Both the position numbers and the translations under genes were made by a program. This document shows positions 8,201 to 57,160 of a DNA stretch of 64,000 nt, piece by piece. The DNA comes from a virus. The notes under the pieces were generated by a model. It made no database searches, was not told the origin of the DNA, and saw only the letters and a program-made list of their open reading frames with translations. Each line of letters begins with the position of its first letter. Within the stretch, counting starts at the first letter, position 1. The stretch is taken from positions 1 to 64,000 of the IMG/VR virus record IMGVR_UViG_3300029957_000007. The stretch is one strand, 5' to 3'.

Positions 8201-8217
8201 GCAACGAGTAAGACTTG

Positions 8218-19205: not shown

Positions 19206-19382
19206 GCAATGATGAGTCGAAAGACAGGTTGGACAAGCAGAGTTGAGTTGTCGGGACGATGTTGCCATCCGCTCAACTTCTCCTTCTGTCGTGGAAAGGT
19301 CAGGTCAGAGAGAAACTGATCCCGGGAATCGACTACTGGTTACGTGCCATCCTACACAATGGGCCACGCAGATCATCATTGT
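19206..19382 (+). ncRNA. candidate structured ncRNA / cis-regulatory RNA
   Basis: 10-bp closing stem gcaatgatga / tcatcattgt enclosing several nested helices. Confidence 0.45.
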
Positions 19383-41478: not shown

Positions 41479-41771
41479 TGGACATCGACTCAGAGGCAAG
41501 GGCCTTTGCTGCCAGGAAGGATCGCCGAAAGGTATTCCTTCCTGGCAGAAGGCAAGACATCGATCTCGAAACTGTGAGAGAAACACTCATCAAGCTTCGA
41601 GAAGTAAAGGATGGGATGTGGAAAGAGAAAGTGATCACATCCGATCCGAAACATGCTGCAATGATCGTTGAGGCTATTAACGAGGTAAACCTCAAGATCG
41701 CTGACTATGAAAACCAACTCAAGGTGCTCAATGCTAGACCTCGAACAGGTGAACGACAAACTGGTCGCTAA
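41478..41771 (+). CDS. hypothetical protein
   Basis: TAATG overlap, 97 aa. Confidence 0.6.
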   Translation: MDIDSEARAFAARKDRRKVFLPGRRQDIDLETVRETLIKLREVKDGMWKEKVITSDPKHAAMIVEAINEVNLKIADYENQLKVLNARPRTGERQTGR

Positions 41772-53057: not shown

Positions 53058-53535
53058 CCAAAGCATTGTCGACAAGCTTCGTGCTGAAGAACTTGAACGC
53101 GTTGAGTCCATTCGACGTAAAGCTGAAAAGGACTCACGTGTAAAGCACTGGTACGACAAGCTGTTGCTTCGATGGTACATCACACTGGTCAAACTGTTGT
53201 GGTGGACACAGAAGGCACTTCAACGTGCAGTCAATCACCGCAACAAGTACAGCGAGACATGGATCACACACGAGTCAACACGCATCTTCGCTGAGATGCT
53301 GCAAGGCGATCAGTTAGACGTGCTGAAGGAGCTCAACATCCTTCGAGCATGGAAGATCGACGACTCGAAGCTGATGATCACATTCGGCAAGATCGAAAGA
53401 GATGAAGAGAAATACGTATTCCCTGACGAGGGCATGTTCATTGTCGTTGAAGCTGTGAACGACCATGACGCTACATTCCTGAAAATTGGAATGGACACGT
53501 GGGAGAAGGAAAATGATTCAGCAAGAAGAAATTAA
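53032..53535 (+). CDS. hypothetical protein
   Basis: 167 aa. Confidence 0.65.
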   Translation: MKLTSLLSSQSIVDKLRAEELERVESIRRKAEKDSRVKHWYDKLLLRWYITLVKLLWWTQKALQRAVNHRNKYSETWITHESTRIFAEMLQGDQLDVLKELNILRAWKIDDSKLMITFGKIERDEEKYVFPDEGMFIVVEAVNDHDATFLKIGMDTWEKENDSARRN

Positions 53536-53797
53536 GCAAGATGTGCTGAATGCTTTACAGCTTCTGAAACCTGAGAGAGAAGAGCAGTTTGATACGACTT
53601 GGGAGATCTTCACCAAGAAGTATTCGCTTCACTCAGTTGAAGCAAGTGGGAACGGGATTGGTCAACACGTTCTTGCTGATCTGCTGCGACCAATTGCACA
53701 GGGTCATCACGAAAGGCACATTCACATTTTCTACAAGCATTTGGTGACAGTGAATGGCGGCATCGTTGAAGTGGACTTCTTGTTCAAGTGGTTCTAA
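53513..53797 (+). CDS. hypothetical protein
   Basis: AAGGA SD, ATG 53513. Confidence 0.6.
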   Translation: MIQQEEIKQDVLNALQLLKPEREEQFDTTWEIFTKKYSLHSVEASGNGIGQHVLADLLRPIAQGHHERHIHIFYKHLVTVNGGIVEVDFLFKWF

Positions 53798-53800
53798 AGA

Positions 53801-53966
53801 CTTGCGGTTGCAGTTGGTGCAAGAGCCAAAGGGCCCAGGACTTGAGCATCGGCCCCCTCGTTCCTTTGCTCAAGTATGACCACCCTAATGCGAATGGGAA
53901 ATCGCATCGTAGGCTGAGCGAGTTTGGAGTCATGCCTCCAATGTAGCAATCCTACACAACCGCAAG
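53801..53966 (+). ncRNA. candidate highly structured ncRNA with pseudoknots (strand inferred)
   Basis: Perfect 10-bp terminal stem cttgcggttg / caaccgcaag; H-type pseudoknot; three more hairpins; fills an ORF-free gap. Confidence 0.65.
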
Positions 53967-53987
53967 GTTTCTTTGACGGAGAGATCC

Positions 53988-54467
53988 ATGCTGAAGAAAG
54001 TTGACACGCTACTCAAGCAGTGCAAGGGTAAGACGACTGTGCATAAGTTTGAGAATCTACTCACGAAACTCGATGGTCTATGCAGAATGGACTTCGACTT
54101 CTTGATGAGAGGCAACCTCATTCCTTACCGAGTCACATTCGCAAATGGTGTGAGTAAAGAGGAGTGGGATGCGACACCAGATAAAAGTAAGGTAGTGACG
54201 ATCGAACATCAGGATCCTGACCAACTCGGCAAGTTGTTCTTCGCAGCAGTGATGGACACACGTCGTCCTCATGATACCACACTGACATTCGTTGATTACT
54301 ACTCGAAAACGATTTCAGTGCGAGTTAAGGGCGATGACTATCACAATCCGATTTTTGTGGCAGAAGGAAGGATCCTCTGGAATGGGGCTCTCGAAGATCA
54401 TCTTCGTGAACAAGAACACGAGGCGATCAAGGAGAAAAACAAAGAGAAGTGGAGAAAGTCACTATGA
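53988..54467 (+). CDS. hypothetical protein
   Basis: GGAG SD, ATG 53988. Confidence 0.65.
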   Translation: MLKKVDTLLKQCKGKTTVHKFENLLTKLDGLCRMDFDFLMRGNLIPYRVTFANGVSKEEWDATPDKSKVVTIEHQDPDQLGKLFFAAVMDTRRPHDTTLTFVDYYSKTISVRVKGDDYHNPIFVAEGRILWNGALEDHLREQEHEAIKEKNKEKWRKSL

Positions 54468-56249: not shown

Positions 56250-56323
56250 CGGGATGTAGCGGAGTGGTACCGCACCTGCTTTGGGAGCAGGGGATCGTGA
56301 GTTCGAACCTCACCATCCCGACC
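56250..56323 (+). tRNA. tRNA-Pro (anticodon TGG), CCA encoded
   Basis: Cloverleaf: CGGGATG / CATCCCG, D-arm GCGG / CCGC, anticodon stem CCTGC / GCAGG with loop TTTGGGA, T-arm GTGAG-TTCGAAC-CTCAC, ACCA. Confidence 0.95.
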
Positions 56324-56340
56324 AATCGACGGAGAAAGCT

Positions 56341-56655
56341 ATGCAGTGTCCTATCTGCACGAAAGAGATGAAGCACATCGAGACACAGAAACTGGTCGAA
56401 CGAACACGTGAGATCTTTGGACGTGAATCGGAGTCGAGAGAAGAGAAACATTTCTGCACTGACTGCGGTGTAGGTGTTACCGCTCTACTGACCATATCAC
56501 GGCCATTGCTGAATGCTGCTCGAACCCCACAGGTGGTTCCTCAGGACGGCCACCGGTCGAAGACGATTGATCCATTACCACATCAAGAGACACACGCCGT
56601 AGGCCAAAGGCGGCTTGGTCAACCAAAGGATCCTACTGATCCAATGCGGACGTAA
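56341..56655 (+). CDS. Zn-ribbon hypothetical protein
   Basis: GGAG SD; CPIC...CTDCG. Confidence 0.6.
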   Translation: MQCPICTKEMKHIETQKLVERTREIFGRESESREEKHFCTDCGVGVTALLTISRPLLNAARTPQVVPQDGHRSKTIDPLPHQETHAVGQRRLGQPKDPTDPMRT

Positions 56656-56715: not shown

Positions 56716-56988
56716 CTAGATCTTCACGGCCTTCGCAGCCTGCTCGAAGGAGGCCTTGATGGCGTTGAGCGCCTTCACAGCGTCCTTGTCGTCCTTGACC
56801 TTGGCGATCTCCTTGTCGATCTTCGCAGCGTTCTTCGCCAGCCGCTTGCTCAGCCGATCGCTGATGCCGTTGAACCAGGCAACTCGGCCCTGACCGAAGG
56901 ACTTGCGCTCCTTCTTCGGAGCCTTGACCTTCTTCTCGGCCTTGGAAGCGGTGGCCTTCTTAGCGGTCTTCTTGTCGGCGTTCTTCAT
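56716..56988 (-). CDS. small Lys/Ala-rich (histone H1-like N-terminus) protein, paralog of the 7235-8200 C-terminal domain
   Basis: Only convincing - strand gene; GAGG SD; MKNADKKTAKKATASKAEKKVKAPKK...RLSKRLAKNAAKI..EIAKVKDDK. Confidence 0.85.
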   Translation of the reverse strand: MKNADKKTAKKATASKAEKKVKAPKKERKSFGQGRVAWFNGISDRLSKRLAKNAAKIDKEIAKVKDDKDAVKALNAIKASFEQAAKAVKI

Positions 56989-57160
56989 GGTGAACCTCGT
57001 GAATGAGTGAGCCATTGTGGCTCTGAGCGAACTGGCTGATCCAGTAGGCTCACTGCCAGTTTACTACAATGCGGTAAACGTGTATACAGAAAAGTGCGGT
57101 AAACCTCAACAAGGAAAACGTATAGCTTGTAATGGCTTTCCAGCACAAGCAGAAATAAGT

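Follow-up and report, generated by a model that had tools for sequence, protein, structure and literature searches.

Bacteriophage T4 encodes two small stable RNAs, rnaC (species 1, 139 nt) and rnaD (species 2, 119 nt), and to our knowledge neither has been given a function in decades. The prohead RNA (pRNA) of phage phi29 is about 174 nt long; a helix closes its 5' and 3' ends, and its loops pair between molecules. The lysine riboswitch is built on a five-way junction. Here, we describe an element from the IMG/VR virus record IMGVR_UViG_3300029957_000007 (122,758 nt), the first 64 kb of which is the window analyzed. Like T4 rnaC and rnaD, the element would be a phage-encoded structured RNA other than a tRNA, in the range of about 120 to 170 nt, apparently within a transcription unit and with its 5' and 3' ends paired. 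The closest cultured relative of the virus is Bacillus phage G, with a portal identity of just 32%.

The non-coding gap and its neighboring genes

Nearly all genes of the window are on the + strand, overlapping or abutting, and this makes the 190-nt non-coding gap conspicuous; the element fills this sole long spacer of its operon. The upstream gene (53513..53797, +) is a 94-aa ORFan with a codon score of +0.195. Its exact protein is already a called gene (P0007) and occurs identically in JGI, ENA, and Logan assemblies; zero relatives were found anywhere. The downstream gene P0001 (53988..54467, +) encodes 159 aa and belongs to a family of five, i.e., P0001 itself and four relatives found in Logan only (P0002-P0005, 54-71% identity, on contigs of 3.7-38.6 kb), and a profile search of representatives of 1.84 billion proteins gave no further member. 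The AF2 model of the 159-aa protein has a pLDDT of 77, and Foldseek returned no fold match in the PDB. Both flanking proteins came out blank against Pfam, PHROGs, and ESM Atlas. The Shine-Dalgarno sequence GGAGAG (53978-83) and the ATG at 53988 of the 159-aa gene (together 53978..53990, +) begin 4 nt past the stalk of the element and are not sequestered: the region from -14 to +3 has an unpaired probability of 0.44, compared with 0.17-0.54 for neighboring genes.

The earlier sequence-only reading had placed the element in a tRNA-containing region, which is a loose description; the nearest tRNA is a tRNA-Pro at 56250, 2.3 kb away. Between the two tRNAs of the window, an ORF on the minus strand (56716-57015) has a codon-usage score of +0.50, the top of the whole block, which supports a real antisense gene. 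At the scale of the record, the first 296 nt (1-296) match the last 296 nt (122463-122758) at 99.3%. This overlap of the ends may mean that the genome closes into a circle, or has a terminal repeat, at about 122.5 kb; the record itself, however, is listed as linear with a completeness of 76%.

Three of the six frames are open over most of the gap (52 aa on the + strand; 49 and 51 aa on the - strand), and this is the one point in favor of a small protein gene inside it, a reading we regard as extremely improbable. The codon-usage scores of these ORFs are negative (-0.04 to -0.2), against +0.19 to +0.47 in typical neighboring genes, and their ribosome-binding sites are missing or misplaced. None of them occurs in a collection of 15 billion proteins and none has been called as a gene; the longest has no relatives, and a search for spurious ORF translations of the gap in relatives gave no candidates. 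The gap is non-coding.

Predicted fold and its departure from chance

On the + strand the predicted fold is nested, with a stalk and four arms, in which five helices (P1-P5) meet at one junction; the linkers of 3, 0, 1, 1, and 1 nt make this a tight five-way junction. The closing stem P1 is a perfect 10-bp helix between CTTGCGGTTG (53801..53810) and 53957-66, which the sequence-only reading had described as closing the gap. Its pair probability is 0.94-1.0, and within 381 nt of context the unpaired share of its 5' strand is about 0%. P1 is lengthened into a 15-bp stalk by P0, in which the minimum free energy (MFE) structure joins AAAGA (53796..53800) to 53970-74 and leaves a 3-nt bulge (53967-69), with pair probabilities of 0.6-0.78. 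The 3' side of the stalk (53957..53974), which consists of the P1 strand (53957-66), the GUU bulge, and the P0 strand (53970-74), is U-rich (GUUUCUUU). The TAA stop of the 94-aa gene (53795-97) falls within P0, and the stalk would thus bring the upstream stop codon close to the downstream ribosome-binding site.

Of the four arms, P2 (53814..53829) is a hairpin of UUGGU and GCCAA with the loop GCAAGA in the pair-probability fold; GCAAG of this loop repeats GCAAG of the P1 3' strand, and an alternative pairing with 53801-05 is possible. The P3 arm (53830..53886) starts with an outer helix of AGGG (53830-33) and CCCU (53883-86) and has pair probabilities of 0.91-1.0. It is capped by the perfect 9-bp helix P3a (53840-48/53867-75) with an 18-nt pyrimidine-rich loop (53849-66). 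P4 (53888..53907) pairs AUGCGA with UCGCAU around the 8-nt purine-rich loop AUGGGAAA (53894-901), which is 92% unpaired. The P5 arm (53909..53955; pair probabilities 0.89-1.0) consists of GUAGG/CCUAC (53909-13/53951-55), GC/GC (53918-19/53946-47), and, within the arm, P5b (UUGGAG/CUCCAA, 53924-29/53936-41) with the loop UCAUGC. Nearly every helix has a pair probability above 0.9 on the + strand and the fold is the same in 301-nt and 381-nt contexts, a self-contained structured domain with a predicted size of about 166-179 nt.

All complementary segments that had been listed from the letters (ttgg/ccaa, gggcc/ggccc, acttgagca/tgctcaagt, atgcga/tcgcat, ttggag/ctccaa, and tgtag/ctaca) are present at their positions, but not all of them form the helices proposed. 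The tgtag/ctaca hairpin competes with GUAGG/CCUAC (53909-13/53951-55), which has a probability of 0.98. The proposed first pseudoknot (53831-35/53851-55) needs G31-G33, which are already paired with 53883-86 at 0.91-0.97; it is geometrically possible but excludes the outer P3 helix AGGG/CCCU, and 4.5% of shuffles contain a 5-bp helix of this loop-to-flank kind when the definition is tightened to exclude large loops. The second, between the P5b loop and 53876-80, is only 4 bp long and has such a match in 26% of shuffles. The pseudoknots are at chance level or compete with better helices; the nested architecture is thus confirmed, but the label "pseudoknotted" is not.

The 168-nt core has an MFE of -64.4 kcal/mol, compared with -49.3 +/- 4.2 in dinucleotide shuffles, none of 400 being as low (z -3.6); a 181-nt + strand version gives z -3.4. 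The ensemble diversity of the + strand is 7.1, compared with 37.1 +/- 12.7 in shuffles (0/150 as low), and that of the - strand is 24.9, a value equally low in 19% of shuffles; the fold of the - strand is not well defined. Among 500 random 168-nt windows of the genome, four are as stable and three as well defined as the element, and none is both. The closing stem is also unusual in that its 10 bp bracket the gap, compared with 3-7 bp in the other long gaps (>=110 nt, 26 compared); the chance expectation for a stem of 10 bp that spans the gap exactly is about 0.001 per gap. The energy is less distinctive after correction for G+C, which is higher in the element: the + strand then ranks 175 of about 3065 windows and the - strand 17, and the MFE of the - strand is lower than that of the + strand (z -5.3). 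There is one G-U among 50 pairs (P<=0.0075 in shuffles, 0.043 in genome windows), so the helices amount to ordinary inverted repeats, able to form in DNA as well, on either strand. Since the element is a single pick, chosen by eye from 64 kb, a multiple-testing discount applies to these values. The predicted orphan fold in the non-coding gap is nevertheless statistically solid and strand-specific.

Two other stretches of the window also gave fold scores. The strongest structure among the genome gaps is at 41479-41706 (z -8.1 on the + strand and -6.5 on the - strand), where two long perfect hairpins directly follow the minor head protein gene, probably as a strong terminator region. At 19206-19382, a 10-bp stem closes a domain that is likewise followed by a U run and CGGAG ahead of the next ATG; this domain was considered as a paralogue and rejected, because its structure is not significant (z -0.9 on the + strand, -1.5 on the - strand).

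Known families, relatives, and rival explanations

The statement that the RNA matches no recognized family agrees with our searches. Rfam 15 (4227 models) at gathering thresholds reports two tRNAs only in the window. For the element the scan is empty of matches even at E<=10, where permissive runs on 601 nt and 191 nt gave noise only (E=6-7, human lncRNA and snoRNA). RF00005 has no match at the element at E<=10, there is no cloverleaf, and ARAGORN, which covers tRNA- and tmRNA-like genes, gives nothing there by default and only implausible calls with 200-nt "introns" at 60-80% thresholds. Y RNA or YrlA was rejected: a bulged stem is present but the tRNA-like module is absent, and the 122.8-kb record (possibly incomplete) contains no Ro60/Rsr gene (TROVE, PF05731), although positive controls were detected in it. 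A retron msr-msd was rejected since the closing repeats are present but the reverse transcriptase PF00078 is absent from the record. A MITE-like element was rejected as well: there is a 10-bp terminal repeat, but the sequences on its two sides (AAAGA / GTTTCTTT) repeat in inverted and not in direct orientation, which leaves no target-site duplication, and the genome has a single copy. As regards an intrinsic terminator, P1 is followed by GUUUCUUU, but the "loop" would be a 146-nt branched domain and a terminator scan gives no call; the clear terminators of this genome are simple long hairpins, unlike the element.

No DNA homologue was found either. Blastn against GenBank phages and against plasmids, tblastn of two neighboring proteins against phages, and protein-seeded scans of IMG/VR, JGI metagenomes, and GTDB genomes were all empty, and so were IMG/VR, metagenomes, and GTDB when searched for exact 20-23-mers taken from four parts of the element. 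A covariance model of the element (R1) detected no second copy in the phage's own genome and no match in five portal relatives, phage G, Rctr197k, a 485-kb uncultured phage, and the T4 tRNA region. The five IMG/VR relatives share 71-78% identity in the MCP and 46-54% in the portal, and they are missing a block of about 26 kb (41.5-67.4 kb of the record) that contains ORFans, tRNA-Pro, tRNA-Ser, the element, a gene for a basic protein on the minus strand, and modular head proteins; in these relatives, the genes for protease, scaffold, and capsid come almost directly after the portal and minor-head genes. The element appears to be restricted to a single, small uncultured lineage and, as far as sequence and model searches tell, it matches nothing described and is novel in that sense. 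We consider it a candidate, not a discovery, with a well-supported predicted fold from one genome.

Short repeats were also examined. Exact copies of the 10-mer AAGACTTGAG are all intergenic (window positions 8210, 21269, and 126 on the - strand; record position 122588 on the - strand), and its one-mismatch copies at 53797 and 53837 are the 5' strands of the two longest helices of the element; with so small a sample we do not call it a signal. A 12-mer common to the element and 21271 is at about chance level and was set aside, and ACTTGAGCA is not enriched in the window.

Our preferred reading, held tentatively and at less than even confidence, is a real, co-transcribed orphan RNA domain that occupies a tRNA-like slot of an operon and is probably released as a stable RNA. 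Within 3 kb, neither strand has a sigma70-like promoter, and an ordinary terminator is likewise absent; thus the element is probably transcribed within the operon, and the + strand would be read as part of a polycistronic mRNA from the tightly packed ORFan operon. The tRNAs of this phage are embedded in operons in the same manner, with the next Shine-Dalgarno sequence 4-20 nt past the tRNA 3' end. The slot common to the element and the phage tRNAs is an upstream gene, a paired-end RNA, and the Shine-Dalgarno sequence of the next gene within a few bases. The octamer GACGGAGA has two + strand copies only in the window, one after tRNA-Pro (56250-56345) and one after the element (53957-53990). From this tRNA-like slot we infer that the RNA is excised from the transcript at or near the stalk, e.g., by a double-strand-specific or tRNA-processing host nuclease, although no nuclease site can be named in the element. 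Once excised, the product would remain as a small, stable RNA, and its working surfaces may be the exposed loops, i.e., the pyrimidine-rich 53849-66 and the purine-rich 53894-901. The accessibility of the downstream Shine-Dalgarno region (0.44) is typical of its neighbors, which counts against a simple translational switch. More speculatively, and rather doubtful in our own estimate, the element could be the first member of a new phage class of about 165-nt five-way-junction RNAs, excised like tRNAs and acting in trans through two large loops of complementary flavor as a decoy, as a scaffold for phage or host proteins, or as a catalytic RNA.

Several other readings have to be weighed against that of a released RNA. 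A spacer at a recombination joint with chance inverted repeats, or a set of young duplications, would have no RNA function at all, and we regard this as a serious possibility, though an improbable one. It accords with the mosaic joint on which the element sits, as judged from an upstream gene with 0 relatives and a downstream gene with four, and with the location inside the ~26-kb block that the five relatives lack. The helices are almost purely Watson-Crick, P1 and P3a have ACTTG(C/A)G in common, which hints at duplication, and the G+C-corrected energy rank is modest for a stretch chosen by eye from 64 kb. Such a spacer, however, is hard to reconcile with a closing stem expected about 0.001 times per gap, or with shuffles none of which is as stable (0/400) or as well defined (0/150). 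Strand asymmetry in definition would be unexpected for neutral palindromes, and tightly packed phage operons would rarely keep 190 idle bases. The same inverted repeats raise the question of a signal at the DNA level, recognized in either double- or single-stranded DNA, e.g., as an array of protein-binding sites or as a site of priming, replication, or recombination. The single G-U in 50 pairs agrees with this, both DNA strands fold (z -4.7 and -5.1, one per strand), and the genome-wide density of CNCAAG/CTTGNG has its maximum here, with 5 in 250 nt. We think that it is quite unlikely, given that four of these five hexamers are merely the two strands of P1 and P3a, that operators and iterons are not usually branched nested repeats, that no replication or recombination gene lies beside the element, and that the DNA fold is unlike the RNA fold and less defined.

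The element could also work in place, as a cis-acting leader of the 159-aa gene (a riboswitch-like aptamer, or an element of mRNA stability or translation) that is never released. It stops 4 nt before the Shine-Dalgarno sequence of the sole flanking gene with relatives, a multi-helix junction closed by P1 is the usual layout of aptamers, a U-rich run follows P1, and a ribosome terminating at 53795-97 would, judging from the size of its footprint, need to open P0/P1. We nevertheless find a leader rather unlikely: the known riboswitch classes are unmatched even at E<=10, the gene under control would be an ORFan that has no link to metabolism, and no expression platform is visible, the accessibility of the Shine-Dalgarno/AUG region being ordinary and a separate terminator hairpin being absent. 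The sequence-only reading had proposed a novel ncRNA or ribozyme; this is supported in part, in that the gap is non-coding and strongly structured on the sense strand, but nothing points to catalysis. A self-cleaving ribozyme of a new class seems very unlikely to us, even if the predicted fold is compact, a crossing helix is possible, and small ribozymes are frequent in phages. The hammerhead, twister, pistol, hatchet, and HDV-like models gave zero matches at E<=10, and an HDV-like nesting is impossible, since the 2-nt spacer 53849-50 leaves no room for P3 between 53848 and 53851. The pseudoknots are unsupported, and a conserved core is not definable from a single sequence.

Comparison with known systems

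With riboswitch aptamers that have multi-helix junctions, the element shares a size of about 170 nt, a predicted five-helix junction closed by P1, and a position just upstream of a start codon; it differs from them in having no model match, no visible expression platform, and an ORFan downstream. The phi29 pRNA likewise comes from a phage, matches the element in size, and has its 5' and 3' ends closed by a helix; our element is moreover located inside a head-gene region. However, the Rfam pRNA family is unmatched, this phage has a conventional large terminase, and the element is in a block that is absent from relatives.

The comparison with processing signals concerns the stalk. Its 15 bp with a bulge resemble the RNase III processing stems of rRNA and of T7 early mRNAs, but this putative processing stem is shorter than classic RNase III substrates of about 20 bp. 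The element also recalls tRNA punctuation, in which an RNA with paired ends lies between cistrons and the next Shine-Dalgarno sequence follows a few bases on, as after tRNA-Pro of this phage; the element is without a cloverleaf.

The closest likeness in kind is to the T4 RNAs. The single-sequence fold of rnaC has z -4.6, a significance similar to that of the element. T4 rnaC, however, has a tRNA-like T arm (GGGUUCGAAUCCC) and abuts a tRNA cluster, whereas the element has no T arm and is 2.3 kb from a tRNA, and the T4 locus is unmatched by model R1. If the element is real, it would represent a new family of structured RNAs in a phage lineage that has hardly been sampled, and a further case of a phage stable RNA, other than a tRNA, in a tRNA-like operon slot; a second, unrelated example beside the T4 RNAs would make the function of phage stable RNAs more tractable.
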